Shown: piece by piece, positions 21,250 to 64,000 of the stretch
Numbering within the stretch: position 1 is the first letter of the stretch
How the letters are laid out: each line of letters begins with the position of its first letter
Assembly: GCF_046119375.1 (NCBI RefSeq)
Contig: NW_027362771.1
Coordinates: forward strand, 24,862,001 to 24,926,000
Direction of reading: 5' to 3'
Origin: Phyllobates terribilis
Taxonomy: Eukaryota
DNA length: 64,000 nt
Program-made: the position numbers and the translations under genes
Notes under the pieces: model-generated
Database searches by the model: none
What the model was told of the DNA's origin: nothing
What the model saw: the letters and a program-made list of their open reading frames with translations, nothing else

Positions 21250-22072
21250 CGTGGTGTTAACCGGGAAGTGTGCTAGTTTTATGTGTAGCATCGACCAATG
21301 TGGGGCAGAGGATGGTATCATATGACCCAGATGACATCTGACAATATCGGTGCATGACCACCCCACCTACAGCTCCTGATCATGTGACTTCTGGTTTCCG
21401 GCCCGTGGAACACACGCCAGCAGCGTCCCCAAGGTAACAGGAGACGCGCCGCACATGCGCTCCCACTATGGCCGGATTCCCCGAAGTCAGGAGTGCAGAC
21501 GTAAGGCGCATGCGCACTGACAGATGAGAACATATGCGGTGCGCTAGGAAAAAGAATGAGGTATATAGTGTCGTGTGTAGAAGAGATCATATGGGAGAAA
21601 AGGCTGCTGAGAACGTGTGACAGTATAATTATGTGTCCAAATAGTGTGAGAGTGAAAACTAATAGTGAGACACTGCAATAAAGATATATATTAAAGGTGA
21701 TCACAGATTGAGATGTGAAAAACTGTTGCTCAGTTCTACAAAATCTCAATAAAGTATAGTGACTTAGGGTATATAATGTGTATTGCACTTAATTGTGTTT
21801 AATGTTAGACTAGCAAGTGTGCATTAACATGATAATAATACAAAAAACACATTTTAGACCAACATAAGAATTACCGTGAATTAAAGTGCTAAGTGCAATA
21901 TGAAGTGAACAAATATATATATCATAATAAAACAAGTAGGAAATTGCAGCACTAATAAAAGCCATATAGCACATAAAAAAGCCTGCATTATATGTACAGT
22001 CAAAGAAGAAATATCTCTCAAGGTAATTATAAATATAAATATATATATAGATATATATATATATATATACAT

Positions 22073-29180: not shown

Positions 29181-29295
29181 CCCAGACAATAGTTTTGGCC
29201 TAATACCACAGTTTGGCCACTCAGCTCTGCTCGGTTCCCATCCATTGTTTTTTTGTGCAAACAACTCCAGAGTTGTGAATTAGTTAACCACCAAA

Positions 29296-32200: not shown

Positions 32201-32976
32201 AAGGAAGCATGATTGTTACCTCGCCACCAACACAACAGGGACTTGGTGCTCCTGGATGCGCAAGACACATGAGTGCCTTCTTGCTGCACTACCTGCAACA
32301 TGACCCTCGAATTGGAAGAATTAGAAATAATCCTGACTACTGGGTTGCCACACTGTTAGATCCCCGGTACAAAAGTAAATTTGCAGAAATAATTCCTGCC
32401 ATAGAAAGGGATGCACGCATGCAGGAGTATCAGCAGAGACTGTTGCAGAATCTTACATGTGCTCTTCCACAAAACACCAGTGGTGCACGTAGTGAATCTC
32501 ACAGTTCCAACTTGCCAACCGTGGGACCGTTGAGTGTTCAGCACTCAAACCGTAACAGAAACGCAGTGTCTGCTGGTAACATCAATTTTGCGGAATCATT
32601 TCACCACTTTTTTAGCTCATCCTTTGCAAGGCCACAGGAGACAAGAAGTCTGACACATAGTCAACGCCTAGAGACGATGGTACAGGAGTATCTCCAAGTA
32701 AACATTGAAGCCATGACTGTGTCACTGGACCATTGCTCTTTTTGGGCTTCCAATCTGGATAAATGGCCGGAGCTCGCCACTTACGCCTTGGAGATCTTGT
32801 CATGCCCCGCAGCCAGCATTCTGTCTGAACGTGTGTTCAGCGCTGCTGGTGGTGTGCTGACAGATAAGCGCACGCGACTCTCCACTGATAATGTAGACAG
32901 ACTCACGTTCATAAAGATGAACAAATCATGGATCCGAAATGACTTTTCTACCCCTGTGTCATCCTGGGGACAGTAA
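29296..32976 (+). CDS. hAT (Ac/ZBED-like) transposase, 1226 aa, intronless; the first catalytic Asp reads as Tyr
   Basis: BED finger (WAFF...CNIC...RHMDMKH), HFTT[Y]TWTS at the usual TTDxWTS position, VCDNAAN, CMAHVLNL (CxxH), DVPTRWKST, SILSERVFSAAG and a C-terminal dimerisation region. Confidence 0.93.
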   Translation: MSGKRPAAGGKGNRHVGKWKKGCVRGVGVKATVTSAEERPSSSKTKMSASFSGQCDKIPFLRPRQSLQIPDFQRISIAPLSGLNSTSTSTSQILQSSEVSPQSHLLPHSSQISSCLSEYEVEQMVESAELFTHTIAWESEVGSSASVNPDEEMICTDAQNLYESDPGPDAEGSDHNVDPHSQTVTPVGGDKEEDDDETQIPDWSDNFSFLSGQEQVGSEDDGCDNAQGDDDEVGDPTYCQPTVSQEMRSAEEVEEDASDDEFRLRLPGQRRSTGSTSTTASSNTTLPLTTSRGGSSGRMGAKPCMAWAFFQIDKDDPTRVICNICQQKLSRGQKIHSLSTSCMNRHMDMKHKLQWEAHCATMRPSRPGQPPSAPPCASAASSSSVTGGTAVTPVLGRRPATSLPATASVIGRSSFSLEVVTPAGVERCPTSIAPPLDQGNLTCPPASSSQTGSLPGTPLSTPSKHNSQPSVPQMWTSKRPFPPSHEKAKRLNFTIWKLLATEMMPFRLVDTEDFRDLMSVAVPQYQIPSRHYFSKKRVPVLHQHVAHNNTASLRNSVCDRVHFTTYTWTSRHGQGRYMSLTGHWVTMVTAGQGAAVQVLPSPRVVHQSSLYRSSSPASASSTSSRSSTCTQSLSGHATSFLTAHKGSCTPPYYARSRAQRHQAVFTLKCLGNVSHTAEELWSALENQFHEWLSPLDLKPGKAVCDNAANLGVALRRGNVTHVPCMAHVLNLVVQQFLAPYPGLDGLLQSVWSLCVHFRCSHPAAQRLTSLQKSLGLPLHRLKCDVPTRWKSTLHMFQRLWQHRQALVQYVLTYSLGQRDPEVGQITLEEWSQIRDLCALLHSFEMATKMFSADDAIISMTIPVIYMLEHMLNRIRSQVVAQEEVEEVEEEELYAEGLTSARSRRSAAPRRQACEGGGDGFTRAHGSSQTSEEGAGAQEAVEDKLMEDSSDEGDHDHISVVRGWGERTEEGSMIVTSPPTQQGLGAPGCARHMSAFLLHYLQHDPRIGRIRNNPDYWVATLLDPRYKSKFAEIIPAIERDARMQEYQQRLLQNLTCALPQNTSGARSESHSSNLPTVGPLSVQHSNRNRNAVSAGNINFAESFHHFFSSSFARPQETRSLTHSQRLETMVQEYLQVNIEAMTVSLDHCSFWASNLDKWPELATYALEILSCPAASILSERVFSAAGGVLTDKRTRLSTDNVDRLTFIKMNKSWIRNDFSTPVSSWGQ

Positions 32977-36590: not shown

Positions 36591-38595
36591 TTTTTAAGAG
36601 AATAATATATGGCGTGCAAGGAGACTCTATGGAATGCTTTCTCAGCATCCAACGAGAGTATCTAATTACAAATTTTTAACTGCATCTAGCCCAGGAAATA
36701 CTTTGTGCCTAGTAGCAGTGTCTGCTAGTCAGCGGATTATCCCGGCTGTTAAGCAAGCTACACCACCTGTAGTTTGGACACTTAATTTTTTCAAAGGAAA
36801 TGCTTCGGGACCACGGGATACTCAGTGAAGAGCATCAGGAGGCACCCCAAGGCATAGGGGCTGGGACTGGCGGTAGGATGCCTTGCGGTGGACAGCCGAG
36901 CTCGATCGTTATAAAAGCTTTTTAACTGCAGCAGCTTTAGTGGACGCTACTGGAGCTGGAATTGCGCGGCTGCTGGCATGAGACTTGCCCTTCAATAGAT
37001 CCTTGTAAAAGGATTTAAAGTGTATTCATTCAAATTGGAGAGACAATTTAAATTAAAAAGCTTAGAGCTGCCTCCACCACAGGGGGGCTCGCTCGATCCA
37101 ACAGCGGACAGGCACCAGTATTGGGAGAGGGGGGCTGGCCGTCAGGGTCCACCGCGGCTCTGGCACAAACGGAGGTGGCACGGGCAGGAACGGACTGGCC
37201 GTGTCGGCTTCTCACTTTTTGGATTTTAGAAGGGCATGACATGCCTATATCTGTGTCTCCCCCTCCTTTTACTCCTCCACCTCTTTTCTTTTCGCATGAC
37301 TATATGTACTTGTCACTTTTCCATGTGTTAGTTATGTCTTCAGAGCAGTTTGTCAGCTTTTGGACACCTTTGAAGGTGTTTTCTATGTGTTTCTATGTGT
37401 TTTTGTTTGCCTGCCATTGGTTTTAATGGTGTTCGAAGGTGTTCGACGAACAGTTCGACGAACAGTTCGGCGAACACAAGGGTGTTCGATGAACCGAACC
37501 GAACTCGAACACTACGGGGGTGGCTCAACACTACTCATCAGACCAAAGCACAGATTTCCACTGGTCTAATGTCCATTCCTCGTGTTCTTTAGCCCAAACA
37601 AGTCTCTTCTGCTTGTTGCCTGTCCTTAGGAGTGGTTTCCTAGCAGCTATTTTACCATGAAGGCCTGCTGCACAAAGTCTCCTCTTAACAGTTGTTGAAG
37701 AGATGTGTCTGCTGCTAGAACTCTGTGTGGCATTGACCTGGTCTCTAATCTGAGCTGTTGTTAACCTGCGATTTCTGAGGCTGGTGACTCGGATAAACTT
37801 ATCCTCAGAAGCAGATGTGACTCTTTGTCTTCCTTTCCTGGGGCGGTCCTCATGTGAGCCAGTTTCTTTATAGCGCTTGATGGTTTTTGCAACTGCACTT
37901 GGGGACACTTTCAAAGTTTTCCCAATTTTTCGGACTGACTGACCTTCATTTCTTAAAGTAATGATAGCCACTCGTTTTTCTTTACTTAGCTGCTTTTTTC
38001 TTGCCATAATACAAATTCTAACAGTCTATTCAGTAGGACTATCAGCTGTGTATCCACCAGACATCTGCACAACACAATTGATGGTCCCAACCCCATTTAT
38101 AAGGCAAGAAATCCCACTTATTAAACCTGACAGGGCACACCTGTGAAGTGAAAACCATTTCCGGTGACTACCTCTTGAAGCTCATCAAGAGAATGCCAAA
38201 AGTGTGCAAAGCAGTCATCAAAGCAAAAGGTGGCTACTTTGAAGAACCTAGAATATAAGACATATTTTCAGTTGTTTCACACTTTTTTGTTAAGTATATA
38301 ATTCCACAGGTGTTAATTCATAGTTTTGACGCCTTCAGTGTGAATGTACAATTTTCATAGTCATGAAAATACAGAAAAATCTTTAAATGAGAAGGTGTGT
38401 CCAAACTTTTTGGTCTGTACTGTATATGCAATATTTTTATATTTATACTTACCTTGAGAGATATTTATTCTTTGACTGTATGTATAGTGTAGGCTTTTTT
38501 ATGTGGTATATGGCTTTTATCAGTGCTGGATTTTCCTACTTGTTTTATTATGTTATATAAATTTGTTCACTTCATAAATCATATTTATGACTATT

Positions 38596-39262: not shown

Positions 39263-39917
39263 TGACTATTGCACTTAGCATTTTAATTCACTGTAATTCT
39301 TATGATGTCGAAAATGTGTTTTTTCTATTATTATCATGTTAATGCACACTTGCTAGTCTGTGTCTAACATTATGCACAATTAAGTGTAATACACATCATA
39401 TACTCTCAGTCACTATATTTATATTTGGTAGAACTGAGCAACAGTTTTTCACATCTCAATCTGTGGTCACCTTTAATATATATCTTTATTGTAGTGTCTC
39501 ACTATTAGTTTTCACTCACACACTATTTGGACACATAATTATACTGTCACACATTCTCAGCAGCCTTTATTCCCATATGACCTCTTCCGCACATGACACT
39601 ATATACCTCATTCTTTTTCCTAGCGCACCGCATATGTTCTCATCTGTCAGTGCGCATGTGCCTTACATCTGCACTCCTGACTTCGGGGAATCCAACCATA
39701 GTGGGAGCGCACGTGCGGCGCGTCTCCTGTTACCTTGGGGATGCTGCTGGCATGCATTTCATGGGCCGGAAACCGTAAGTCACGTTATCAGGAGGTGTAG
39801 GAGGGGTGGTCATGCACCGATATTGTCAGATGTCATCCGGGTCATATGATACCATCCTGTTCCCCACATTGGTCGATGCTACACATAAAACTAGCACACT
39901 TCCCGGTTAACACCACG

Positions 39918-39955
39918 CCCCCTGAGGAAGTCAGACGATGAAACGTACGTTGGGG
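39918..39955 (+). ncRNA. Minimal type I hammerhead ribozyme (best-preserved pLTR copy)
   Basis: CCCC-CUGAGGA-A-GUC(AGAC)GAU-GAAAC-GUAC-GUU-GGGG: 4-bp stem I, 3-bp stem II, palindromic stem III ACGUACGU. It lies about 500 nt upstream of the ORF ATG. Confidence 0.78.
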
Positions 39956-40453
39956 AAGAAGGACCTTGCATTACACCGGTACCACTATTAAGGCTTTGCT
40001 ACGGTATGTCATCACTATATATCACCCGTTTACCACTTTAACACTTGCTTAATGACTAATGTATGGGAGAGTATTTATATTCCAGCATACCTAAGAGTAG
40101 AAGCACACTTTATGTGAAGATGTGTGTCCCAACTTGCAATAGTCTGCATTCTGATTGAAATACCGTACACCTCAGGTCAGATGTATTCCAATGTCCCTCA
40201 CAGTGTGGAGGTGCTTTTTTTATCATTTTTTATGTTTGTATGTGTACACAACATTAATAAAGTTTTGTTATTCTTAAGTTTACTGAATCAGTTTGGCTCT
40301 AATCATATTTTAGATTTTATGTGGACCGAACTATATGATACCAATGTCTATATTTTGTCAGCAACTCTATTGGAGTTTGTAGGACGATTATGGTTGTTTG
40401 ATTTTAATTGTATCTTTTCTCTGTTTAAACAGATAGTTCCAAGTGTAGTGCCT

Positions 40454-41181: not shown

Positions 41182-42192
41182 TGTTAGAGCCCTCCTGTTT
41201 GTTTTTTCCATCTTGTGTTTTGCGGTCACGTGACTATCTGCCTTTATATTCCAGCTCCGCCCTTTTTGCTGTGCTGGACTTCAGTTTTGTTTGACTGTTT
41301 CTCTAGCCAGGTGCTTTGGTGCCTATCTCTGTCAGTTCGCTTGGTCCTTCTGGGACCTCTAGTACCTTTTTGTCAGTTTGTCTTTTTGTGTTCTGCAACA
41401 ACTTCTCTGTTTAGGAGGTGTCCCATTTTTGTTCCAGTCCTTAGTTCTTTTAGGGACCCCTCCCCTAATGCTATAGGTCTTCGTTCAGACTAGCCGAGGA
41501 CTAAGGAGGGTCTGTTCGCTATGAACAGGCAGCCCGCTACATCGTAGGGATTCAGCTTAGTCTTACTGTAGGGACAGCTTTCCCCTTTCTTTCCTTAGTA
41601 CATGTTGCTGATCATAACAGTTTTTCCAGCCCAAAAAACTAAAAGGAAAGAAATTTGGGGATCAGTATGGTTTCCGTCCAGGATTTAGCTCAACACTTGC
41701 AGGGATTGTCTCTGGCGGTGGCTGAGCTCCAGTTACACGTGAGATGCTGTTCTGGAGCGCATTTTGTGGTACCCAAGGTAGGACTGCCTGATGTTTTTTA
41801 TGGTAAACAGCAAGATTTTTTTTCCGTTAATAATACTTGTTTGTTATATTTTTGTTTGAGACCAAGGTCCTCTGGGAATGAATCACAGGGCATTGATTTT
41901 ATTATGTCACTTTTGCGCAATGAACCACAGGGGTGGGCCTTTTCTCTCCAACCTAATGATTCATGCTTAGGCTATGTGCCCACGATGCAGAAATGCTCCG
42001 GATTTTTCCTGAGCGTTTCTGCATCTCCCTGGCAGAAAAAAACGCATGCGGATTGTACATGCGTTTTTCCTGCCAGGGACATGCGGATGTGAAGCGTTCT
42101 TCACATGCATTTCCGCATGCGGGTTGACAAGCACTTTCCAAGCGATTTTAGCATCACTTGGAAAGTGCTTGTCAACTTGGTCACACTATATA

Positions 42193-46800: not shown

Positions 46801-48455
46801 GTGGTGGCGGCATTGGGCTCCGTTTTGGAGAATGGGATTCTGAAAGCTCAAGATGATGTCCAATCTAACACTCCCCATGGGAGGTTGTTCGTGCCTAGAA
46901 CCTTTAGGAGAGATTTGTTTGTGGAGTGTCATGAGTCTCGGTTGGCAGGTCATCCAGGAATTTCTGAGACTAAGAGACTTATCAGTCGCAGTTTTTGGTG
47001 CCCTGGATGGCAGAAAGAAGTCATCAAATGAGTGCGTCAATGTACTGTGTGTGCTAGGTCAAAGGCTTCACATACTCCTGCCGCGGGGTTGCTTTGCCCT
47101 CTTGAGGTTCCTAGTGCACTTCGGACGCATCTCACAATTGATTTTATTACTGATCTTCCTGTGTCTGAGGGTTTTACTGTCATCTGGGTGGTCGTGGACC
47201 GTTTTAGTAAGATGTGTATTTTGGTTCCATTCATTAAGTTGCCCTGCTCCAATACACTTGCTAAGGCGTTTGTTAAGCAGATTGTCAAGCTTCATGGTGT
47301 TCCTACGGATATTGTTTCTGATAGAGGACCTCAGTTTGTGGCTCGCTTTTGGCGTTCTTTTTGTGACAAGTTGGGAGTCCACTTGTCATTTTCGTCTGGG
47401 TATCATCCTGAGTCTAATGGACAGACTGAAAGAAAGAACCAGGATGTAGAACAGTTTTTGCGTTGTTTTATGGCGGACAATCAAGAGGTGTGGTCTGAGT
47501 TTCTGCCTCTCGCGGAATTTGCTCTTAACAATCATACATCCTCCTCTGCTGGGTGTTCTCCTTTTTTTTGTTGCACTGGGAGACATCCGTCTTTTGGTTC
47601 GTTCTCCAAATTGGGGTCGGCGGTGCTGGAGGAGGAGAATTTTTCCGGTGATTTGGAGAGAGTTTGGACTAATGTACATTGTAACCTGCAAGAGGCTAAC
47701 GAGAAGTCCAAGAATTATTTTGACAGGAAACGTAAAGAGGTTTTGTTTATTGTGGGTGACATGGTTTGGTTGTCCTCAAAGAACTTGTGTTTGAGGATTC
47801 CCTCTAAAAAACTGGGTCCTAAGTTTGTGGGTCCATTTAAAGTGCTTCAGGTTGTTAACTCATCTGCTGTCAGGTTGGATGTCCCTACTTCCTGGAAGAT
47901 TAATCCTGTGTTTCATGCTTCCTTGTTGAAAAAGGCTGATGTATCAGATAGGGATTCCACTGTCACAGTTCCTCCTGTGGTGGAAGACGGCGAATATGAA
48001 ATTTCTCATATCTTGAATTCTAGATGGCATTAAGGGAGATTACAGTATCTTGTCTCCTGGAAGGGTTTCGGTCTCGAAAATAACTCCTGGGTAAGGACGG
48101 ATGATGTCTCTTCTCCTAGGCTTGTTAAAGCTTTCCACAAGAGGTTTCCGGATAGGCCCGAGCCTGGAGGATCCGGAGGATCCTCATAAAAGAGGGGGTA
48201 CTGTTACAATCCTCCTGTTTGTTTTTTCCATCTTGTGTTTTGCGGTCACGTGACCATCTGCCTTTATATTCCAGCTCCGCCCTTTTTGCTGTGCTGGAAT
48301 TCAGTGTTGTTTGACTGTTTCTCTAGCCAGGTGCTTCGGTGCCTATCTCTGTCAGTTCGCTTGGTCCTTCTGGGTCCTCTAGTACCTTTTTGTCAGTTTG
48401 TCTTTTTGTGTTCTGCAACAACTTCTCTGTTTAGGATGTGTCCCATTTTTGCTCC

Positions 48456-48714
48456 AAGAAAGAAGGAATTGTGCGATGTTAGTGAAGCGCTAGAACAACT
48501 AGACAGGGGATTAGGTTATAACACACAAACCTTTTATTGTTTCGTAGGCTCTCTAACGCCACTACGCGTTTCGATAGCAGAAGCTATCTTCCTCAGGTAT
48601 CTTCCTTGTGGCGTTAGAGAGCATACTAAACAATAAAAGGTTTGTGTTTTATAAACTAATCCCCTGTCTAGTTGTTCTAGCGCTTCACTAACACCGCACA
48701 ATTCCTTCTTTCTT
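48456..48714. repeat. 259-bp hairpin: 107-bp arms (48456-48562 and 48608-48714) and a 45-nt loop
   Basis: The arms are near-perfect reverse complements, and each contains AATAAA on one strand. Confidence 0.95.
48560..48600 (-). ncRNA. Hammerhead ribozyme in the hairpin loop
   Basis: UAC-CUGAGGA-A-GAUAGC(UUCU)GCUAUC-GAAAC-GC-GUA-GUG: perfect core, 6-bp stem II, palindromic stem III ACGCGU, GUA cleavage triplet. Confidence 0.88.
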
Positions 48715-48730
48715 GATTGCTAATCTCCCC

Positions 48731-51700
48731 TGTGGAGAGCGGTGGAAGTGACATGCCCAGGGGAATGGGGACGACTCGTCGCCCGGGCCTTGTTGTTACC
48801 TGACCTTGGGGGATGTCGCGGTGGTCGGCTCCCTGGCCCGTACCCTGGGGTCACTCTTAAAAGAAAGGGGGGAAGTTATATGGGATAGGGAATATTCGTG
48901 ATGCCACCCGTGGGGTCTGGTGAGGATCACCAGCCCTGCAACAGTCCTCTCAGGCCGGTGTTCAGGCAGCTTAGTTGGTGCGGCTCCCCGCAGGTGGAGC
49001 GGGGCCTCAGGGCAGAGTAGGAGAAGGGATGCAGGACAGAGGGGACCCAGCCGGGTCAGAGGAAGAATGGTCACACACACAACAGTTCACTTCAGTACCT
49101 TTACTGTTGGTGTTTCTTGCACAGTCCAGGGTACTTCAGGGTGAAGGGTGCATATCAGGACTCTCCCCAGTGAGTGGGTGTGGGGCCTCCTGTTCCTTGC
49201 CTTTCCTTGATAAGTTTCTGACCTGCCAGGAGCTAGGCCTAACTTGGTCTCTGTCTTGCACCTGCTGACCTGGTGGTAGGGCTTTCTGTTGGAGGTCACA
49301 CTCCCTGGTCTCTGGGGCCTCCGTGACTCCTGACCCTGCTATGTAATCAGCTTTTGGTGTTCCTGGGACATATAATTCACCAGGGGTTCCGGTTGTTTCT
49401 GCTGGGTGTAAGGAATCCCTGCAGACGCGGACCTGGTGTCTGGTATATGTTCTTGGGGTGAGAGGGTAAAGCTCCTCTGCCCCCTTTTGTTACTCTCTTT
49501 CCACTCGCCTTCGGCCACGCTCGGGGCCTCACTAGGCTTCACACGGGCAGTAGGCCTCGCTACTCTTCACCGCTCTTTTGGCGTCGGCACTAGTGTTGAG
49601 CCACCCCCGTAGTGTTCGGGTTCGGTTCGGTTCGTCGAACACCAGGATGTTCGAGGAACTGTTCGTTGAACTGTTCGTCGAACACCTTAGAACACCGTCG
49701 AACACCGTTAAAACCAATGGCAGGCAAACAAAAACACATAGAAACACATAGAAAACACCTGCAAAGGTGTCCAAAAGCTGACAAACTGCTCAGAAGACGC
49801 TTTCTTTAAAAAAGCCGGTCGGCAATTCAGCAGCGGCATACACCGGTACCCGACAATTTAGACAAGAAGGAATAGAGCTTCACACATAGATTAGATAGAT
49901 AGAAACATGTCAGTCACATATATATGAAGTACAGTGACAGTGTTGCTTACTGTACTTGTCATTTAGTGTAAAGGATTTATTAAAAAATATAATAGTGTTT
50001 TCATGCACCGTCTCTTTAAAAAAGCCGGCAGGCAATTCAGCAGCGGTACCCAACAATTTATAACAGACAGAATAGAGAATCACACATAGATTAGATAGAT
50101 AGAAACATGTCAGTCACATATATATGAAGTACAGTGACAATGTTGTTTACTGTACTTGTCATTTAGTGTAAAGGATTTATTAAAAAAAATAATAGTGTTT
50201 TCATGCACCGTCTCTTTAAAAAAGCCGGCCGGCAATTCAGCATCTGTACCCGACAATTTATAACAGACAGAATAGAGCTTCACACATAGATTAGATAGAT
50301 AGAAACATGTCAGTCACATATATAATAAGTACAGTGATAGTGTTGGTTACTGTACTTGTCATTTAGTATTAAAATAAAGGATTTATTATTAAAAAAAATT
50401 GGCGTGGTGTTCCCCGTAACTTTAGTCTCTAGCGGAGGTTAAGCAGACGGCTGGGGCAAATGTTTGAAGTCTGGGAAGGGGGTAATACCCACGGAGCTTC
50501 CCAGGCTACTAATATGAGCCCCCAGCTGAATACATAGCCTTTACTAGCTATTAAAATGGGGGACCCCCCCAAAAAATGACGTGGGGTCCCCCCTAATTTA
50601 ATAGCTAGCAAAGGCTAGGCAGACAGCTGGGGGCTGATATTAATAGCCCAGGAAGGGAGCCATGAATATTGGCCCCCTCCCAGGCTAGAAACACCAGCCG
50701 TCAGCCGCCCCAGAAATGGCGCATTCATAGGATGCGCCAATTCTGGCACTTAGCCTCGCTCTTCCACGCTGCCCTGGTGCGGTGGCAGTGGGGTAATAGG
50801 GCTGGGGTTGATGTCAGCTTATAATGCCAGCTGACATCAAGCCCAGGTTAGTAATGGAGAGGCGTCTATAAGACACCCCCATTACTAACCCCATAGTCAA
50901 AGTTAAAAGAAAACACAAACACCCAGAATAAATTCCTTTAATTGAAATAAACACACAATCCTTTATTGTTCTAAATTAAACCATACTTACCGTCACGCCC
51001 ATTCCAGCTGAAGCCAACGATCTCCTGCAATAAAAGAAAAATAATAAAGCAACATCATCCTTACCTTTCCATGGTTCCCAGGACAGCTTCAGCTCTGCTA
51101 CATCGAGATGACAGGCTGGACCGCAGCAGAACGCTGCCATCCAGCCTATCATCCCGCAGACACTGAGAAGCGCAGGCTTGCTTGCGCTCTGCAGTGTCTG
51201 GCTGTGACGTCATAAAGATGAGACGAGTTCATGTCCAATGAACTCGGCGCACCTCATGCACGTCACTGACAGCGTGGGAAAATTCTCACGCTGAAGCGCT
51301 GAGTGCAGGAGAATTCTCCCACGCTGTCAGTGACGTGCATAAGGTGAGCTCATGTCCAATGAACTCAGCTCACCTCCTGCACGTCACTTACAGCGTGGGA
51401 GAATTCTCCTGCACTCAGCGCTTCAGCGTGAGAATTCTCCCACGCTGAAGCGCTGAGTGCAGGAGAATTTTCCCACGCTGTCAGTGACGTGCATGAGGTG
51501 AGCCGAGTTCATTGGACATTAACTCGGCTCATCTGGATGCCCTCACAGAGAGACACTGTGGAGCGCAAGCAAGCCTGCGCTTCTCAGTGTCTGCGGGATG
51601 ACAGGCTGGATGGCAGCGTTCTGCTGCGGTCCAGCCTGTCATCTCGATGTAGCAGAGCTGAAGCTGTCATGGGAACCATGGAAAGGTAAGGATGATGTTG

Positions 51701-54700
51701 CTTTATTATTTTTCTTTTATTTCAGGAGATCGTTGGCTTTAGCAGGAATGGGCGTGACGGTAAGTATGGTTTAATTTAGAACAATAAAGAATTGTGTGTT
51801 TATTTCAATTAAAGGACTTTTTTCTGGGTGTTGTGTTTTTTTTAAATACTTTACTAGAAATTCATGGTGGTCATGTCTAATATTGGCGTGACCCCATGAA
51901 TTTTGGGCTTAGGGCCAGCTGATAATGCCAAGCTGGCCCTAACCCCTTTATTACCCAGTGAGCCACCGCATCAGGGCCCTGGATGAGTTGGGTACAGCGC
52001 CAGAAGATGGCGCTTCTATGAACGCGCCATTTTCCGGGGTGGCTGCGGACTGCAATTTGCAGCGGGGGTGGCCCAGAAAGCTTGGGCCTCCCTGCGCTGC
52101 GGATTCCAGCCCCCAGCTGTCTAGTTGTACCTGGCTGGACACAAAAACAGGGCGAAGCCCCACGTCAATTTTCTTTAAATTATTTCATGAAATAATTAAG
52201 AAAAAAAGGGCTTCCCTATATTGATGTGTCCGGCCAGGTACAAATAGGCAGCTGGTGGTTGGGGGCAGCCCGCTCCTGCCTGCTGCACCTGACTGGACAC
52301 AAATATAGTGCGAAGCCCCACGTCAATTTTTTTTTAATTATTTCATGAATTTCCTGAAATAATTTAAAAAAATTGAAGTGGGGCTTCGCACTATATTTGT
52401 GTCCAGCCAGGTACAGCAGGCAGGAACGGGCTGCCCCCAACCACCAGCTGACTATTTGTACCTGGCCGGACACAACAATATAGGGAAGGCCTTTTTTTCT
52501 TAATTATTTCATGAATTTCATGAAATAATTAAAAAAAAAATACGTGGGGCTTCGCACTATATTTGTGTCCAGCCAGGTACAACTAGGCAGCTGGGGGCTG
52601 GAATCTGCAGCGCAGGGAGGCCCAAGCTTTCTGGGCCCCCCCCGCTGCAAATTGCAGTCCGCAGCCACCCCGGAAAATGGCGCGTTCATAGAAGCGCCAT
52701 CTTCTGGCGCTGTACCCAACTCATCCAGGGCCCTGGTGCGGTGGCTCACTGGGTAATAAAGGGGTTAGGGCCAGCTTGGTATTATCAGCTGGCCCCAAGC
52801 CCAAAATTCATGGGGTCACGCCAGTATTAGACATGACCGCCATGAATTTCTAGTAAAGTATTTAAAAAAAACACAACACCCAGAATAAAGTCCTTTAATT
52901 GAAATAAACACACAATTCTTTATTGTTCTAAATTAAACTATACTTACCATCACGCCCATTCCAGCTGAAGCCAACGATCTCCTGCAATAAAAGAAAAATA
53001 ATAAACCAACCTCATCCTTACCTTTCCATGGTTCCCACGACAGCTTCAGCTCTGCTACATCGAGATGACAGGCTGGACCGCAGCAGAACGCCGCCATCCA
53101 GCCTGTCATCCCGCAGACACTGAGAAGAGCAGGCTTGCTTGCGCTCCACAGTGTCTCTCTGTGACGGCATCCAGATGAGCCGAGGTCATGTCCAATGAAC
53201 TCGGCTCACCTCATGCACGTCACTGACAGCGTGGGAAAATTCTCACGCTGAAGTGCTGAGTACAGGAGAATTCTCCCACGCTGTCAGTGACGTGCATGAG
53301 GTGAGCTCATGTCCAATGAACTCAGCTCACCTCATGCACCTCACTGACAGCGTGGGAAAATTCTCCTGCACTCAGCGCTTCAGCGTGAGAATTCTCCCAC
53401 GCTGTAAGTGACGTGCATGAGGTGAGCCGAGTTCGTTGGACATGACCTCGGCTCATCTTTATGCCGTCACAGAGAGACAATGTGGAGCGCAAGCATGCCT
53501 GCTCTTCTCAGTGTCTGCGGGATGACAGGCTGGATGGCGGCGTTCTGCTGCGGTCCAGCCTGTCATCTTGATGTAGCAGAGCTGAAGCTGTCGTGGGAAC
53601 CATGGAAAGGTAAGGATGAGGTTGCTTTATTATTTTATTTTTATTACAGGAGATCGTTGGCTTCAGCTAGAATGGGCATGACGGTAAGTATGGTTTAATT
53701 TAGAACAATAAAGGAATGTGTCTTTATTTCAATTAAAGGACTTTATTCTGGGTGTTTGTGTTTTTTTTAACTTTGACTATGGGGTTAGTAATGGGGGTGT
53801 CTTATAGACGCCTCTCCATTACTAACCTGGGCTTGATGTCAGCTGGCATTATAAGCTGACATCAACCCCAACCCTATTACCCCACTGCCACCGCTACAGG
53901 GCAGTGGGAAGAGCGAGGCTAAGTGCCAGAATTGGCGCATCCTATGAATGCGCCATTTCTGGGGCGGCTGACGGCTGGTGTTTCTAGCCTGGGAGGGGGC
54001 CAATATTCATGGCTCCCTTCCTGGGCTATTAATATCAGCCCCCAGCTGTCTGCCTAGCCTTTGCTAGCTATTAAATTAGGGGGGACCCCACGTCATTTTT
54101 TTGTTGGAGTCCCCCATTTTAATAGCTAGTAAAGGCTATGTATTCAGCTGGGGGCTGATATTAGTAGCCTGGGAAGCTCCGTGGGTATTACCCCCTTCCC
54201 AGGCTTCAAACATCTGCCCCAGCTGTCTGCTTAACCTCCGCTAGAGCCTAAAATTAAGAGGAACCCCACGCCAATTTTTTTAATAATAAATCCTTTATTT
54301 TAATACTAAATGACAAGTACAGTAACCAACACTATCACTGTACTTCATATATATGTGACTGACATGTTTCTATCTATCTAATCTATGTGTGAAGCTCTAT
54401 TCTGTCTGTTATAAATTGTCGGGTACAGATGCTGAATTGCCGGCCGGCTTTCTTAAAGAGACGGTGCATGAAAACACTATTATTTTTTTTAATAAATCCT
54501 TTACACTAAATGACAAGTACAGTAAGCAACACTGTCACTGTACTTCATATATATGTGACTGACATGTTTCTATCTATCTAATCTATGTGTGATTCTCTAT
54601 TCCTTCTATTCTAAATTGTTGGGTACAGATGCTGAATTGCCGGCCGGCTTTTTTAAAGAGACGGTGCATGAAAACACTATTATTTTTTTTGATAAATCCT

Positions 54701-57700
54701 TTACGCTAAATGACAAGTACAGTAAGCAGCACTTTCACTGTACTTCGTATATATGTGGCTGACATGTTTATATCTATCTAATCTATGTGTGAAGCTCTAT
54801 TCTTTCGGTTCTAAATTGTCGGGTACCGGTGAATGCCGCTGCTGAATTGCCGGCTTTTCATGTTTCACTGTTGGCACTGTTCCCATCGATTTGGGCAATC
54901 ACTGTAATGCCACAACCACCATGGCTGTGGCATTACAGTGAGTGGCAGACAATCCCTGCATGATTGGTGCTCTAAATAGCGCCAGACATGCAGGACACGC
55001 TTTTGGTGCACGAACAGTTATCGAACATAACCTCGAACAGCCGAATTTTTTGCAAATCGTTCGGGTTCGTCGAACAACTCGAACACCGCCCAAAACAGCT
55101 CGAATTTGAGATTGGCGAACAGTTCTAGTCGAACACCGCTCATCTCTAGTCGGCACGCCCTAGGCTCACTAACTCCAGCTCTCTGAGTCTGGACTGAACT
55201 GACTGAGCTCCACTGCAGGCTAGCTTCTGCAGGAGCTCCTCTCAACAGGCTGACCTTCTCACAGACTGTAGACTCCAGACTGACTGCCTAACTCCACCCT
55301 CCAGTATATATATCCCTATCCAATCTCCCTCTGGTGGTCTGAGGAGGTAGGGTGGAGGTGTGTGAATGGTATGAGGGCCTCTTGTGGAGAAGTCCGTCCA
55401 TGCACCCCTCTTGGATCTGTGGCACCAATGCGCAGCAGGGCGCCACATTCCCCCCTAGCAAAGCTCAGTACTCCCGGACTGAAGTAATTTTTACAACAGG
55501 TAACAACAATAACTGTTCCCTTTATGGGAGGCACTTTGCTTGAACGTTGCATAATAAAACATTATAAATAATAAATATATACATACATACAATAAGCAAC
55601 CTCAGAATTTAAATCTGTTCCGGTGAGGTCCCCTGACAGAGTGTCCATCTCACGGGTAAAGTACAAGGTAGCTTGAGGGACCTGTCCAAAGCAAACCCTC
55701 AACGTAGGCCCTGGGGTGGCTGCAGGGCATGGCGATCCTGAGTTGGACCTCCACTTCGGCCACGCCACACAGGTTTTTGTTCTGAGGTCACATAAAGGGG
55801 CACTCCAGGGAGTGAAATTATTTACAGCAAACAGATTTTGGGCTGCACACAGTCCTCAGCCACAAAGTTCTTTATGTACCCTTACGGTTAACTAGAGATA
55901 ACAAGGGAAGTGTCCATATCACTTAAATTGTCCATTAGTAAGGCAAAGCACATATCAAGATATACATACATGAAAAATACACAAGACAATACCCCAGGAG
56001 CAACTATCTACACTGTCAGAGTTTCCTTCTCTATTCTCTGTATCTGACAGGGGTCTGACCTCGTGTGCTACGTGTCAACCTGCGTGGTACTGGGATTCGT
56101 GAGGCACTAGTGTTTGCACTACCTCCCATTCTGTCAGTTCTAAGTGTTGGGGAACTGCAGGGTTGCCTTAACCTCTCTACAGGACTGGCAAGTATACCAT
56201 TGGCTGGGCCTTCTTGCTCTGCTCCAACCGGGATCCTTCTTCCGGGTATTCTTCTTGAGCCGGCTCTTCTGAAGCACTTACAGGTTCTACTTGCTGTGGA
56301 GGGTCTTCTAGCTGTTCAAAGAAGTGGATCACAGGTATTATTACTGCTCCTCCTAGTTGAGGCCAATCTGCCGGGAAATCTCCTAAGTCAGTATGGAGTA
56401 CTGCTTCTTTAGGCTCCTCTGGTACGGTGAGAGGCACTTCTTCTTGGGGCTTTAGCATGTCTGGACACAACTTCAGATGGTCTCTAGATACCGTTGCAGT
56501 CGTTATTCCTCCGTCTTTGCTAATCAAACAGGTCTTCTTGTTATCAAATCTTGAATTTAACACAGTGTAGGGTTCTCTCTTCCACTGGTCATCAAGTTTG
56601 TGGTTTCTCCTTTTCCTCTTTAACACCACTTCTCCTGGTGTGAAGGGTTCTGCGGGCGCACATTTATTGTAGTGGGCTTCCTGCTTGTCCCTTACCCGAG
56701 TGAGACTGTCTTCGACACAGGCCTGTACTCTTCTGTACTGCTCCTGTCTGCTCCTGTCTGGTCGTGTCCCAGTCCTCAGTGGACATATCTGCTTCTGGTT
56801 CTACTACACCAAGCTCCAGGTCTATGGGCAACTTCCCGGTTCTTGCTCGCATGAGATATGCTGGAGTACATTGGTGGAACTCACAGGTATGTAGTTGTAC
56901 AAATCTACCAGGTCAGGTAGTAGGTCTGGCCACTGATTTCCATCCTCTAGTGGTAAGGTCTTCAGCAGATCGATGACGATGTTATTCATCTTTTCACAGA
57001 TACCGTTAGTTTGGGGATGGTACGGTGTAGTCCGGATCTTTTTACACCCGAAAAGATGGCAGAACTCTTTGAACAGTTCGGCTCCAAAGGCTGGGCCTTG
57101 ATCCATCAGCACCTGCTCCGGGTATCCATGGGTCCTGCAGAAGTACGCCTGAAACGTCCTCGCTGCTGTCTCTGCCGTCAGATCCTTGACGGGGGCGACC
57201 ACGAGGAACCGGGAGTAGTGATCCACCATGGTCAGGGCATAGGAATATCCTGACCTGCTGGGTGACAGCTTGACATGATCCAGGGCCACGATCTCCAAGG
57301 GACAAGTCGTCTTGATGGGTTGCAGGGGTGCCTTCTGGCTGCTGTAGTCTTTTCTTCTGAGACTACAGGGTCCACAATTCAGGCACCACCTCTCAATGGA
57401 ACTGCGCATTCCTACCCAATAAAACCGACACTTCAGCAGGGTTTCTAGCTTCTTTCAGCCAAAGTGCCCCGCCTGATCGTGGTAGGCATCCAACACCATC
57501 TGGATGTCTGTCTTGGGCACCACTATCTGCCATACCATCTCATGGGTTTTGGGGTTGACTTACCTCCGGCACAGCTTCTCTCTATAGATGAACAGCCGCA
57601 TCTTCTCATTCCACAGCTGCTTGGCTTGTAGAGACGCGTTCTTCTCCAGGGAGGAACCTTCTTGAGTTATCAGCTCTTTGATACGGCTGACAACCGGGTC

Positions 57701-60700
57701 GCTGTCCTGGGTCTCCTTCCAGCTGTGGTGAGGCAGGGGGTTTAACGTCATACCGTGATGCCTCCTGGAGGCTCGTTGCTCGTGGACCATTCCATTCCGA
57801 TGAAAGGCAGGTAGTTCAATCTCCTCCAGGTCATCCACTTTTTCTTCAGTGTCCAACTGGTGAGGCATCCTGGACAGGGCATCGGCAGTAGCGTTCTTGC
57901 GGCTCGCCCGGTACTTAATAATGAATTAGTATTTTGACAGCCGAGCCATCCATCGTTGTTCCATGGCTCCTAGTTTGGCTGTTTCCAGATGAGTCAAGGG
58001 GTTATTATCAGTGAAGGCAGTGAACTTACTGGAGGCTAGATAGTGTTTGAACCGCTCGGTGATGGCCCAGACCAGGGCCAGGAACTCCGACTTGAAGCTG
58101 CTATAGTTCTCTGGGTTCCTTTCGGTCGGATGGAGCTTCCTGTTTGCATAGGCGATCACCTTCTTTCGGCCATCCTGAGTCTGACTCAGTACAGCTCCCA
58201 ATCCTTTGTTGCTGGCATCAGTGTACAGCAGGAACGGTTATCTGTAGTCAGGGTAGGCTAGGATCTCTTCGCCGGTCAGGATCTCCTTATCACCTTAAAG
58301 GATTCAGCTTGCTCCTTACCCCACTGGAACGGGGGATTCCTGCCTCTGGTGGACTGTCCTACCAGGAGGTCTTGCAGAGGCGCTGCTTTCTTGGTATAGT
58401 CCTTCACAAACCTCCAGTAATACCTGACTAGTCCCAGGAACTGACGTACTTCCTTGAGGCTCTTTGACTCCGGCCATTTCTGGATGGCAGTGACCTTCTC
58501 TGGGTCTGGTGCTACTCCCTCTGGACTAACGATGTGCCCCAGGTACTGTACCTTTCGCTTGAGCAAGTGGCACTTTGAGGGCTTCAGCTTCATCCCATAC
58601 CGGGACAGCGACTCAAATACCTCCGCCAGGTGCTTCAAGTGGTCCTCATACGTTTTGGAGTACACTATAACGTCGTCCAGGTATAGTAGTACAGTCTCAA
58701 AGTTGCGGTATCCCAGGCAGCACTCCATCAATCTCTGGAACGTTCCAGCGGCGTTGCAGAGTCCAAACGGCATACTGTTGATCAAGCAGAGTCCCATCGG
58801 GGTAATGAAGGCCGTCTTCTCCTGATCCTCCTCAGCAACAGCTACTTGCCAGTACCCACTAGTGAGGTCAAGGGTGGAGAAGTAATTTGCAGACTTTAAG
58901 GCAGCCAGGGATTCCTCTATATGTGGTAAAGTGTATGCATCTTTATGTGTAATATGATTTACTTGTCTGTAATCTACACACATTCTCATGCTTCCATCCT
59001 TTTTCCTGACTAGAACTAGGGGAGCTGCCCAGGGACTACAACTATCCCTTACTACCCCTGCCTTCTTCATGTCGTGCAACATCTCCTTCGACTTCTTGTA
59101 GTGTGCTGGTGGTATAGGCCTGTAACGTTCTTTGATGGGTGGATGGTCACCTGTGGGGATATGGTGTTGTACCCCTTTAATCCTCCCAAAGTCAAGTGGG
59201 TGCTTACTGAATACCTGCGCTTATTCCTGAACCACCCGGTGTACCCCCTGTTTTTGATGGACAGCGGTGGTGTCTGTCCCAACATGGAGCTGTTGACACC
59301 AATCCTCCACCTGGGTTCCCGGGTCATTATCCTCCACTTCGTCTGGTGAGGTTAAGGACTCCGCTGTGTGTATGGAGTTGTTATTTACCATGTACAATTT
59401 GGCAACAGTGGCATAGCATGGTAATCTCACCTCGTCCTCCCCATAGTTTAGGAGGCGTACGGGCACCCTCGCATTACGTACATCCACTACCCCTCTGGCA
59501 GTTAAGAGTGTAGGTCTATGCTCTGAGCTAAGGGGCTCTACTACCGCCTGGTAGCTCCGTTCTTTGAGACCTATTGCTGCTCTACACCAAATCAGCATTT
59601 CACTCATTGGGGGAATCACAATGGGTACCGGGTCTGTCACCCGTACATTACCAATTTCACCGCCTGTTAGCTTTACCTGTTGCTAGTACATAAGGGCTCG
59701 GATCTCTTTCTGGAGCGCCCTTCCCTGCCCTGGTCTGGCAGTGTCAGCTATCTGTTGGAGCAAGAACAACACTTCTCCCAAACAGTTACTAACAATATTT
59801 GTGCCAAGTACCATATACAAATCTGTATCATCAGGATTAGTCTCTACTACAATTAGTCCTTGGTCCTTCAGTTCAACTCTTCCCACCTTTACTGCCACAT
59901 CCTTAACCCCGACTAGGTTAAGGGGGAGGCCGTTTGAGGCATACACGGAAAGATTTGGATCAGGTGGGTGAAGTTCGTCTATGGACCAGAACCTTTTGTA
60001 GAGGACATCAGGCATGATGGTTACCTGAGATCCTGTGTCCAGCAGAGCAGGTGTTGTGATGCCGTCCAGCACGATGGACAGGAAAGGTCTTCCTCCCACG
60101 AACCTGTGGTACCATTTTGATGGGCCTGAGGGGTTTACTCCTGGGTGTCGGCCCTCGGCCCCAAGGTTTGCTCATTTAAAGGACAGCTCTGGACGGCGTG
60201 ACCTGTCTTGTGGCAGCGGTGGCAGACAAGGTCCTTCGGTAGGCGGCGTTGGTCGCTTGTCCTCCCAGGGGTTGGCGTTCTCCTCCTCCTCCTTCTCATC
60301 CCGGGGACATCGTCAGCGCTGCAACAGTGCTGCATCCAGCGCTGCATCAGTCCTCTGAGGCCGGTGTTCAGGCAGCTTAGTTGGTGTGGTTCCCCACAGG
60401 TGGAGCGGGGCCTCAGGGCAGTGTAGGAGAAGGGAGGCAGGACAGAGGGGACCCAGCCGGGTCAGAGGAAGAATAGGCACACACACAACAGTTCACTTCA
60501 GTACCTTTACTGGTGGTGTTTCTGGCACGATCCAGGGTACTTCAGGGTGAAGGGTGCATATCAGGACTCTCCCCAGTGAGTGGGTGTGGGGCCTCCTGTT
60601 CCTTGCCTTTCCTTGATAAGTTTCTGACCTGCCTGGAGCTAGGCCTACCTTGGTCTCTGTCTTGCACCTGCTGACCTGGTGGTAGGGCCTTCTGTTGGAG

Positions 60701-61288
60701 TTCACACTCCCTGGTCTCTGGGGCCTCCGGGACTCCTGACCCTGCTAAGTAATCAGCTTTTGGTGTTCCTGGGACATATAGTTCGCCAGGGGTTCCGGTT
60801 GTTTCTGCTGGGTGTAAGGAATCCCTGCAGACGCGGACCCGGTGTCCGGTATATGTTCTTGGGGTGAGCGGGGAAAGCTCCTCTGCTCCCTTTTGTTACT
60901 CTCTTTCCACTCGCCTTTGGCCACGCTTGGGGCCCTCACTAGGCTTCACACGGCCAGTAGGCCTTGCTACTCTTCACCCCCCTTTTGGCATCAGCACGCC
61001 CTAGGCTCACTAACTCGAGCTCTCTGAGTCTGGACTGAACTGACTGAGCTCCACTGCAGGCTAGCTTCTGCAGGAGCTCCTCTCAACAGGCTGACCTTCT
61101 CACAGACTGTAGACTCCCGACTGACTGCCTAACTCCACCCTCCAGTATATATATTCCTATCCGGGCTCCCTCTGGTGGTCTGAGGTGGTAGGGTGGAGGT
61201 GTGTGAATGCGATGAGGGTCTCTTGTGGAGAAGTCTGTCCATGCACCATACTGGGATCTGTGGTACCAGTGCGCAGCAGGGCGCCACA
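48731..61288 (-). mobile_element. Gypsy LTR retrotransposon (PR-RT-RH-INT) with most of gag deleted; 3' LTR ~48731-49590 plus 55157-55447, truncated 5' LTR ~60347-61288
   Basis: LTR start TGTGGCGCCC on the minus strand at 55447 and 61288, and PPT taggggggaa. CCHC knuckle CHRCHKTGHAVQSC, PR LLDTGSQV, RT YLDD (58276-59082), RNase H, and INT (56822-57409). No TSD found, so the left boundary is less certain. Confidence 0.88.
49591..55148. mobile_element. Non-autonomous hAT element (copy 2, 5.56 kb) with a giant nested-palindrome interior
   Basis: Same termini as 3431-9293; perfect 8-bp TSD GTCGGCAC. The empty site is visible in the sister LTR at about 60990. Confidence 0.95.
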
Positions 61289-61743
61289 GAGGCTGCTCTG
61301 TTTAAAACTAGCCTACTACAGGACCTGACATGATGTCATTGTGGAATGCCCAATTTGGTCACACAGTCCAGTTCCTGCTAAGCTGCGGTCATCTAAAAGA
61401 CTCCCACCTGGAAGTGTTTTCCCTTGTTGTGCGGGGCTCCTTTGCACAACAGGACCAGGTGAGTGGTCACAACATCCTCCCCCTTCATTCGCCCCCAAAA
61501 CCTCAGGCTCTTCACCATTGGCGCTCCAACTGCTTTTGTTTTCCATTTTTGTTCCAATCCTTAGTTCTTTTAGGGACCCCTCCCCTTATGCTATAGGTCT
61601 TCGTTCTGACTAGCCGAGGACTAAGGCTGTACTGTTTGCTAGGAACAGGCAGCCCGCTACATCGTAGGGATTCAGCTTAGTCTTACTGTAGGGACAGCTT
61701 TCCCCTTTCTTTCCTTAGTACATGTTCAGATCATAACAATAGT

Positions 61744-64000
61744 AAGGTAATTAACCTCTCTACACATGTTTTGACCAATATTCAGCAACAGGTCCTAGAA
61801 AAAGGCTTATTATTTTCACGTTCTCGGTCTTTAGATCCCTTTGTAGCCATAAAAGATGTCCATTTGTTTGCTCGCAAAATGATACTGAGGAAATTACACT
61901 CTAAACAAACAAATGAGGATGTTTTTATCACCAAGGACGAACAGGAGGCATTGGCCATCTTAGAATCTCTAAGTGAAGAAAATTCTACCTCTAATGAGGT
62001 GAGTAGTTTCCCCACACATTTGTATTGTAAATCTAAGAAATTTCCACCCATCAGTTTATGTCCTGCGGTAGATATCTTTGCGAAACTTGTCTCCGCTGAC
62101 ATTGAAAATCTGGCTTTTGAGTCCGATAAATCAAAAAAGAACCTTAATAGGACAGAACAGCTGGCCCTAAAGGAATTGCAGAGCTGGCAGGATGTCGTGT
62201 ATAAACCAGCCGATAAAGGCGGCAATGTTGTTATCTGGCCCAAGGAGGCCTATGAAAAACAGGCTCATAAATTATTTAATGATACACGCTGTTACTGTAA
62301 ACTATCTAGTAACCCTACTATCTCCTTCCAGCTGGAATTGGTTGAAATCCTAGAAAAAGGATTTGAGCAAGGGATAATTTTGAAGAAAATGGTGGATAGT
62401 GTTAAGGAACTGCACCCTCGCATATCGACCTTCTATATCATTCCCAAAGGTCATAAAAACGTACTTGATCCACCTGAGAGACCGATAGTAGCGAGCATCG
62501 GGAGCTTATATGAACTCATATATGTTACCATCAATTTTTACCTCAAGCCACTTGTATTGACTTTACCATCATATGTCAAAGACACAACTGCCGCCCTACA
62601 TGGTTTCGATAACGTACATCTGACACCAAATATGACTATGGTAGTTGCCGATGTAGAATCGCTTTATACTTCGATAAGGCATGTGGATGGCTTGAGGGCA
62701 GTTTCTTTCTTTCTTAAATCCAGCAACATAAAGCCCGCTCTGACTGAACTTTTACTAATATTGTTAGAGTTCATCCTTACGCACAATTATTTCATATTTG
62801 AAAAACAGATCTTTCTTCAAACTCAAGGAACTGCAATGGGTGCAGCATGTGCCCCCAACTGCGCAAATTTATTTCTTGGAACATGGGAAAGAGATATTTT
62901 CATGGTGGACACAATACCTGGCATTTAGAAGATCCAACAATGGATGAGGTTTATAGATGACGTTTAGTTTATCTGGGAGGGCACTAATTTAGAACTTGAG
63001 TGCCTGATGAACAGATTAAACTTGAATAACATCAACTTCAGGTTTCCTACAGAGCAGGAAGAAACTTGGACTTTTTGGACATTAATATCACCACATTACC
63101 CAATGGTGACCTGCATACGGATGTCTTTAGGAAGCCAACATTAACAAACGCTCTATTGCATGCAAGTTCTTCACATCCAGCATCAACTATCAAGGGTATT
63201 CCAGTGGGGCAATTTCTGAGACTGAGGCGCATTTGTTCAAATGACCTCTCCTTTGAGAGACAGGCAGAGGATCTCAAAGAGCGCTTTAAAGAAAGGGGAA
63301 ATAACTGACATCAGATTTAGGGAGGATACTTTAGGGCAAAGCAGACATCTCGTAATGATGTTTTGTATAAAACCAAATCAAGTGATTCCATTGACAATAC
63401 AAATCCAATTCGGCTGATAACAACTTTTAATGACCAGTGGATGGGTCTGAGGAGAATCATTCAGAAACATTGGAATGTTCTCCGGGTTGACCCCATTCTC
63501 ATAAAATGTCTGCCAGAATGCCCATCTATTACGGCACGCAGGTCTAAAAATTTGAAAGATCTTCTCGTTCGTAGTCATTAAGAAGGGAGAAATCAGAACA
63601 AAAATACTTTGCTTAGCACAATTGGATTCTATCCCTGCAATCATTGCAATGCATGTGCAAATATGGTAAAAGCAAAGTACTTTAGAAATTCGGCTAATAC
63701 AAGGACCTATGTGATTAGACATCACCTTACATGGTCTTCTAAAGGGGTAATTTACTTTGCTTAATGCCCTTGCAAAAAAATATACATTGGACTAACCACC
63801 AGAGAACTAAGAGTAAGAACTCGGGAGCATGTAAGGGACATCGAAAAAAGCAAAACCACCGAAGATGTGACTCAACTTAAGACTCTACCTAAACACTTCT
63901 ACCTATGTCATCAAAGTGACGCCAACTTGCTGAAAGTTAAAGCCATAGACCAAGTGTCTATGGGCCCTAGGGGTGAGAATCTTGGTAGGATGCTAGCTCA
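61744..64000 (+). pseudogene. PLE RT, Cys-rich linker and GIY-YIG endonuclease (Neptune-like), with stops and a frameshift
   Basis: KPADKGG, RPIVAS, DVESLYTSI, QTQGTAMGA, RFIDD, YPCNHCNAC, and GVIYFA*CPCKKIYIGLTTRELRVRTREH (~63745-63830). Confidence 0.92.

Follow-up and report, generated by a model that had tools for sequence, protein, structure and literature searches.

The hairpin at positions 48456-48714 of the 64,000-nt stretch of Phyllobates terribilis DNA analyzed here (the window) is best explained, with a probability of roughly three in four, as part of a short insertion with two arms, left by an autonomous Penelope-like retroelement (PLE) of the Neptune type; in this scheme, both nicked target strands would have primed reverse transcription, at about +110 and about +435 of the element RNA, and the copies would have been joined head to head. 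Throughout, element positions are counted from the predicted hammerhead cut, +1 being the first base 3' of the cut (window position 48562, minus strand). The lone copy in the window is ordinary debris, and the value of the analysis lies in the family-wide junction map, in which exact positions can be named: a putative start near -41, the predicted cut at +1, and candidate priming sites at +110 and +435. The family counts bear on two questions about PLEs, namely the cause of head-to-head insertion and the role of the hammerheads.

The hairpin unit and its hammerhead

As reported in the preliminary description, inverted arms of 107 bp (48456-48562 and 48608-48714; 102 of 107 positions identical) enclose a 45-nt loop with a complete hammerhead on the minus strand, and the predicted cut falls between 48563 and 48562. 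Alignment to a natural copy (L100) places the short arm at 48455-48599 on the minus strand, corresponding to element positions -37 to +108. It is followed by 8 nt of junction filler (48600-48607), which does not represent native stem I; the filler is re-copied hammerhead sequence that may have originated by slippage. The long arm, on the plus strand, consists of a first part at 48608-48748 (+1, possibly -2, to +141) and a second part at 61293-61545 (+142 to about +437), the latter with a 41-nt deletion relative to the natural copy and, near +349, a putative splice donor; these boundaries replace the earlier ones of 48608-48730 and 61289-61542. The two parts are separated by a nested LTR retrotransposon (48749-61288; TG...CA ends, 4-bp duplication with one mismatch), which does not belong to the unit and was inserted later, the arm restarting at 61293. 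The ORFs within this nested element are presumably RT and integrase-like.

The unit was received by a host LTR on the plus strand (48202-48456, resuming at 61543-61738). The direct repeat of 13 bp noted earlier is indeed present and represents a target-site duplication, with a length of 14 bp and one mismatch: the left copy lies at 48443-48456 on the plus strand, its final 2 bases also belonging to the short arm, and the right copy at 61543-61556 on the same strand, its initial 3 bases also belonging to the end of the long arm. The sister LTR (41182-41619) contains the empty target site as a single copy at 41423-41436. The long arm was said to start exactly at the cut, which holds to within 2 nt; in the alignment, its start can be placed anywhere from -2 to +1, since the preceding dinucleotide equals -2/-1 of a common family variant (13 of 91 arms). 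The divergence between the arms, 4.7%, is above the median of the family; with its interruption and its partial deletion, the copy is dead.

The core of the hammerhead (48563-48596, minus strand) comprises CUGAGGA, an extra unpaired A, a 6-bp stem II, GAAAC-GC-GUA and a palindromic stem III. The features of a minimal type I hammerhead (a core with CUGANGA and GAAA, an NUH triplet, stems I and II, and a palindromic stem III) are present, in agreement with the earlier assignment to the Penelope type. Both core boxes are undamaged in 62 of 91 family arms, and the cut triplet is GUC in 69 of the 91, in contrast to the GUA of the window copy. A strict motif scan yielded 2 such cores in the 64-kb window; the second is located at 39922-39951 on the plus strand, within the terminal part of another PLE-like repeat, which has copies at 2073-2782, 21046-21755 and 39412-40121. 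An Rfam search of the window at E<=5 yielded 78 matches, none of them to a hammerhead family, and the assignment of the hammerhead fold therefore rests on the motif and on comparison across the family. In full copies, the bases 5' of the core pair with +1 to +15 and form a native stem I of about 13 bp (4 bp, an internal loop and 9 bp), of which the window copy retains a 3-bp remnant that is predicted not to form. The idea that the 107-bp stem could act as a switch of the ribozyme found no support: the cut site is sequestered in the predicted fold, yet native stem I is absent and, among short pairs of arms in the family, 49 of 54 junctions (breakpoint pairs) are distinct, and therefore the hairpin has not been multiplied as a fixed structure.

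The parent element and its genomic copies

Judged from its sequence, the window unit is a two-armed stub derived from the terminal repeat of an autonomous 5.5-kb PLE encoding RT and GIY-YIG with a Neptune-type linker. Because the stub sequence is the end of an element with RT and endonuclease, it does not represent an independent, undescribed non-autonomous element, as had been envisaged. In the 10.6-Gb genome, two 26-nt probes gave 222 and 346 exact matches, and the reversed controls gave 0. A near-complete copy of 5.55 kb (L161) has the hammerhead repeat at either end, with a spacing of 5,388 nt, and is organized as the repeat from -55, the leader, an intron-like region, a broken long frame, the 3' region, promoter-like motifs, the hammerhead, and the end at +109. 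Its frames match Pfam RVT_1 (E=1.3e-4) and then GIY-YIG (E=3.3e-4), both below the Pfam curated cut-offs. In another copy (L030), the same hammerhead is located immediately 3' of the RT-end and GIY-YIG frames, and in both L161 and L030 a CX4CxxC linker precedes GIY-YIG; according to the available text of PMC8557442, a CX2-5CxxC linker motif is common to the Neptune and Nematis clades. A search with sequence past +435 gave 18 matches, 10 of which (L182, L184, L185 and L187-L193) have the promoter region 5' of the leader, six of these 10 being copies of one locus. Pseudo-LTRs with the hammerhead and partial tandems are also present in the family.

The unit was correctly described as unrelated to the large PLE of the window (61681 onward): no DNA similarity was found between the two, though the protein of the parent element is related, the translated identity between L161 and the PLE-like RT of the window being 31-42%. 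This other PLE-like element is present in two copies (61681-63959 and 15665-17597), with a protein that is, by segment, about 24-60% identical to that of the parent of the stub.

The donor-like site at about +349 is still present in genomic copies, which have kept the putative intron. Contigs from two studies end at this putative donor (L161 6375-6377), one of them with unrelated loose sequence, and no spliced joint was seen in them; these contig ends give a weak hint that stubs splice into adjacent sequence. An ATG at about +437 was provisionally rejected as the start codon, as its frame does not simply join the downstream exon. L161 is flanked by a duplication of about 300 bp of a Tc1-like target (1100-1230 and 6780-7090), not of 16 bp, and has no inverted partner. 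One insertion was recovered at at least 10 places (L015-L023, L026), mostly on unplaced contigs, with flanks that are 99.6-99.9% identical, that is, a recent large segmental repeat. At L129 (3991-7212), three tandem 1,382-bp units, each consisting of a stub from -24 to +435 with a truncated core plus flank, adjoin an inverted short arm, possibly an early step towards a satellite.

For the junction map, 94 of the 100 listed matches of the first probe (222 matches) were analyzed, two tandem copies and the last four being left out. These 94 loci comprise 89 plus five that also belong to the first 30 loci; the latter, picked by likeness to the window, were otherwise kept out of the tally, the five being also on the unbiased 222-match list. 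The second probe (346 matches) added 41 loci. Fourteen loci (duplicate entries or copies of one insertion) and one tandem copy were removed, and the histogram omits three arms in which an overlap of 17 nt is ambiguous, resulting in a final set of 119 insertions and 178 arms. Arms were placed by eye at L061 and L028 and approximately at L010, and palindromes within the hammerhead blur the junction calls. An arm was counted as long by script if it extends past +135.

Arm ends and candidate RNA templates

The outer ends follow a strict pattern. One short and one long arm are arranged head to head in all 62 two-armed insertions sampled, most loci having been chosen with a long-arm probe, so that two-long pairs were detectable throughout and two-short pairs only in the 41 second-probe loci. 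Short arms end at +106 to +112 in 69 of 74 cases and long arms, where mapped, at about +431 to +436, which leaves a one-sided tail (long minus short arm) of about 325 nt. A target duplication of 14-19 bp was scored in 44 of 45 scorable two-armed loci by a script with lenient offsets. Following the T run of the long arm, the letters are C (84 of 87), C (83), A (69) and T (55) before the background is reached; the same letters follow in full-length copies, which suggests pairing of 2-4 nt between the target and the RNA at the +435 end.

We infer the start site, cleavage and two-strand priming discussed below from these genomic copies. A staggered target cut would yield two 3' ends about 16 nt apart, each of which would prime cDNA on the sense RNA, at +110 or at +435; synthesis would reach the 5' end of the RNA or halt early, and the cDNA ends would be united via microhomology or filler. 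Each arm would be antisense cDNA extending from the 3' end at one edge of the duplication, as expected of priming from both strands of a staggered cut, and this geometry would require no antisense template. In LINE-1 twin priming, both target strands likewise serve as primers on the RNA, and microhomology joins the resulting cDNAs; there, however, the two cDNAs represent separate stretches of the RNA and the position of the second site varies, whereas here this position is constant and the overlap of the arms results in a palindrome.

The 5' ends of the 178 arms are bimodally distributed: 34 lie beyond -60, 1 at -55, 85 at -44 to -31, 17 at -30 to -4, 19 at -3 to +10, and 22 at +11 to +90, with the main peak at -41/-40 (31 arms) and a smaller class at the predicted cut. 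Thus, the expectation that inversion points would lie at the cut throughout the genome was borne out for a minority class, most ends being at -44 to -31. A TATA box starts at -72, and the peak at -41 lies 31 nt below it; a Pol II start is expected at -41 for a TATA box at -72. The peak is likely to mark the transcription start, which would then fall within the 5' strand of native stem I. A splice acceptor behind the -40 peak was rejected, as there is no AG at this position. Exactly at +1, there are 4 certain arms (5 with the ambiguous one), compared to 0.33-0.6 per position elsewhere (Poisson P of about 4e-5 to 2e-3). When each of the 54 short pairs is represented by its more 5' arm end, 45 lie at -44 to -26, none at -25 to -4, 8 at -3 to +7, and 1 at +24. 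The start class tends to be common to both arms of a pair (Fisher p=0.009-0.012), but 13-14 of the 54 pairs are of mixed class, and 4 of 45 uncut-class pairs have, like the window copy, one arm at -3 to +4; the cut and uncut classes are not cleanly separated.

Genome-wide break probes gave 131 matches for -41/-40, some of them palindrome artefacts, versus 11 for the cut; of the sampled arms, 39 of 82 and 49 of 115, respectively, match these probes exactly. Nine of the 11 are true breaks at -1/+1, and 8 of these 9 are two-armed. All 8 partners of the cut-start arms begin at +1 to +14 and are devoid of the ribozyme; one locus was already in the sample, and the chance of ribozyme-less partners in the 7 new loci is about 2e-4. 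Among 27 arms at 21 further loci, there were two more that start at +1, both again with ribozyme-less partners. A position-matched search at +21 gave 196 matches, but is uninformative as a control because it matched a family polymorphism (98 of the 100 matches listed are a C/T variant); restricted to non-T bases, it gave 1 among the 100 matches listed, a point change. Among the listed holders of the sequence, none is recorded as RNA, and four runs of contigs aligned to the leader revealed no joints, no start sites and no usable ends. Because an arm that starts at the cut usually has a ribozyme-less partner, some copies were likely made from ribozyme-cut RNA; for self-cleavage of the family's putative hammerhead, the junction record is indirect evidence.

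Three templates can be envisaged. RNA initiated at the promoter, from about -41, would have a crippled stem I, remain uncut and give the commonest stubs; RNA from +1, the 3' hammerhead cleavage product, would account for 8-9 of the 54 short pairs; and uncut read-through RNA would give the long copies. In predicted folds, read-through RNA (z=-3.6) forms native stem I with a pair probability of about 0.7, compared to 0.00 in RNA beginning at -41, in which a 5-bp hairpin of -8 to -4 with +4 to +8 is predicted. As stem I is predicted in the read-through RNA but not in RNA from -41, the cut class would most likely stem from read-through terminal repeats with full stem I, the 3' cleavage product of which would retain both priming sites. 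Concerning the window copy, its short arm reaches -37 and keeps the ribozyme, and therefore was copied from uncut RNA. The previous view of a fossil of reverse transcription of a ribozyme-cleaved RNA is thus right about the reverse transcription and wrong about the template of the short arm. The window copy would fall into the first class, its long arm having halted at -2 to +1 by chance or via a second, cut RNA; chance is the probable explanation, since the 4 matches among 45 comparable pairs are about the background truncation over seven positions.

Alternatively, two-strand priming might be correct while the +1 class reflects pausing of the polymerase at a small hairpin or later loss of palindrome centres. 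This is unlikely, even though the 5-bp hairpin just described is predicted in RNA from -41, 10 arms start at +2 to +10, and long palindromes are unstable. A pause would be expected where the polymerase first meets the hairpin, at its 3' foot (+8), and not as far as +1, and no pair has its furthest end within -25 to -4. Deletion of palindromes is at odds with three loci that start at -1/+1 or +1 without a partner seen: L092 and L169 begin at +1 and have no partner within 1.5 kb, and L201 is one-armed, extends from -1/+1 to +435 and has its own duplication, and therefore cannot be explained by such a deletion.

The two arms of one insertion appear to have a common source. Two non-CpG variants are common to both arms in 23/23 and 29/29 pairs, respectively, and a third in 30 of 31, and the median divergence is 2.3% between the arms of one insertion versus 4.7% between insertions. 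Both arms extend beyond -60 in 5 pairs, both are short in 49, and 3 pairs are mixed; the 10-kb surroundings of long arms mostly contain a long partner. The sharing of variants and the pairing of long with long arms would fit either a single RNA or two that stem from the same source locus. With one RNA, copying the same stretch twice would need strand displacement. Cleavage in dimeric form has been suggested for minimal hammerheads (PMC4209133, in the part available), in which case two RNAs cut together would also share a class, and half-cut pairs would give mixed copies like that in the window.

The correlation of arm lengths also bears on a rather improbable scheme in which all priming takes place within the 5' leader, long copies result from a retrovirus-like jump to a ribozyme-cut 3' end sharing a 40-nt repeat, and stubs are failed jumps. 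If an RNA extended from -41 as far as the downstream cut, it would have -40 to -1 at both ends, L161 continues to -55 beyond the full unit, and cleavage and circularisation were proposed by Cervera and De la Pena (PMC4209133, available part); yet independent jumps should yield many long-plus-short pairs, which is not what the distribution of 5, 3 and 49 pairs shows.

Self-priming on an antisense transcript, published for head-to-head PLE junctions together with intron retention in the model of Arkhipova et al. (2013; PMC3846280, as far as its accessible portion goes), would also give a head-to-head palindrome, and the genomic copies studied here retain the putative intron. We nevertheless regard it as very improbable for this family, because three observations would not follow from it: the clustering of 5' ends 31 nt below the TATA box of the sense strand, the existence of a class that terminates at the ribozyme cut of that strand, and the fixed positions of the two outer ends, each of which adjoins one copy of the duplication. 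Hardly credible is the originally proposed fold-back or template switch on a ribozyme-cut RNA of an independent non-autonomous retroelement: the window long arm does begin within 2 nt of the cut, the family does have a cut-site class, and non-autonomous PLE derivatives have been described (bioRxiv 10.64898/2026.07.22.740005, available part), but the sequence belongs to the terminal repeat of an element with RT and endonuclease, most arms include the ribozyme, the largely distinct junctions do not form one fixed recurring structure, and the second arm should never reach further 5', whereas either arm does so equally often (the long arm in 22, the short arm in 23, with 4 ties, of 49 pairs).

Priming from both target strands on the sense RNA thus remains the preferred reading. 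A more far-reaching proposal, to which we would give somewhat less than even odds, is that the stubs preserve an in vivo record of Penelope replication, with a dimeric enzyme that primes both strands on a single RNA at two fixed, asymmetric sites, and that, owing to a transcription start within stem I, the ribozyme is off near the promoter and on in read-through RNA. Cleavage in the read-through copy would sever both priming sites from the coding body, so that the hammerhead might act as a brake turning full-length insertions into ribozyme-less stubs.

Relation to known systems and other features of the window

Several aspects are already known: the inverted copy that has a tail on one side, the hammerhead of minimal type, the occurrence of paired motifs on the two strands, and, in vitro, two start sites with extension of both strands. 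Insertion units of endonuclease-bearing PLEs have been described, in the accessible parts of the respective papers, as a pseudo-LTR, an adjacent inverted 5'-truncated copy and a one-sided tail (Craig et al. 2021, PMC8557442; Arkhipova et al. 2013, PMC3846280). In the same parts, the shared features are the head-to-head inverted copy, a tail at one end only, the target duplication, partial tandems, a TATA box and an initiator-like motif in the terminal repeat, and sequence that may be a retained intron. The present family differs from these descriptions in its tail of about 325 nt, compared to 30-40 bp, in the strict use of one end of each kind (62/62 sampled), and, relative to the Adineta examples given there, in duplications of 14-19 bp instead of 8-10 bp.

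A biochemical parallel is Poseidon PAc of Anolis carolinensis, for which Frangieh et al. 2024 (PMC11167929) showed that purified PLE protein cuts and extends both target strands in vitro from two internal start sites, which agree with the tail. As proposed for our family, the two internal starts are 3' of the hammerhead and both strands are extended, and the main template is uncut RNA. However, Poseidon belongs to another clade (the linker here is Zn-finger-like), and the start sites of our family are 325 nt apart. No reads ending at the cut were seen for Poseidon, whereas genomic copies starting at the cut exist here, and neither a strand preference for the start site nor priming homology was found there, in contrast to the use of one site of each kind and the match of 2-4 nt to the target at +435 here.

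Minimal hammerheads of metazoan PLEs occur, according to the available part of Cervera and De la Pena 2014 (PMC4209133), as opposite-strand motif pairs 100-700 bp apart, with about 9,000 motifs in Xenopus tropicalis. The type I core, the unpaired base before stem II and the palindromic stem III suited to dimer cleavage are shared with the hammerheads described there; the longer native stem I (4 bp, internal loop, 9 bp), with the putative transcription start inside its 5' strand, differs from them. Similarly, animal non-LTR retrozymes (Li et al., bioRxiv 10.64898/2026.07.22.740005; Cervera 2020, PMC7229834; both in the portions available) are non-coding, have a type I hammerhead and are related to PLE terminal repeats, but form head-to-tail tandems with a ribozyme per unit, whereas the head-to-head stub is made anew at each insertion. 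The head-to-tail tandem units without a coding partner in cis that characterize non-LTR retrozymes are thus not what the stubs show, their arms being head to head and their sequence being the end of an autonomous element. Within the literature searched, which stopped short of older Penelope papers and supplements, no proposal of two-strand priming for PLE inversions was found, nor any report of a tail as long as about 325 nt, of pairing that strictly combines one arm of each kind, of a start inside stem I, or of copies beginning at the cut.

The window harbors further features. Two related 5-kb elements (3636-8997 and 49805-54852) contain nested inverted repeats and internal tandem units of 200 bp and 166 bp; no long ORF was seen in them, and they are a source of spurious microRNA matches. 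An open frame of 1,230 aa at 29284-32976 (plus strand) probably resembles, to judge from its C-terminal motif, a hAT-type transposase. A fragment of eukaryotic small-subunit rRNA at 36944-37063 (minus strand) scored above the Rfam threshold.
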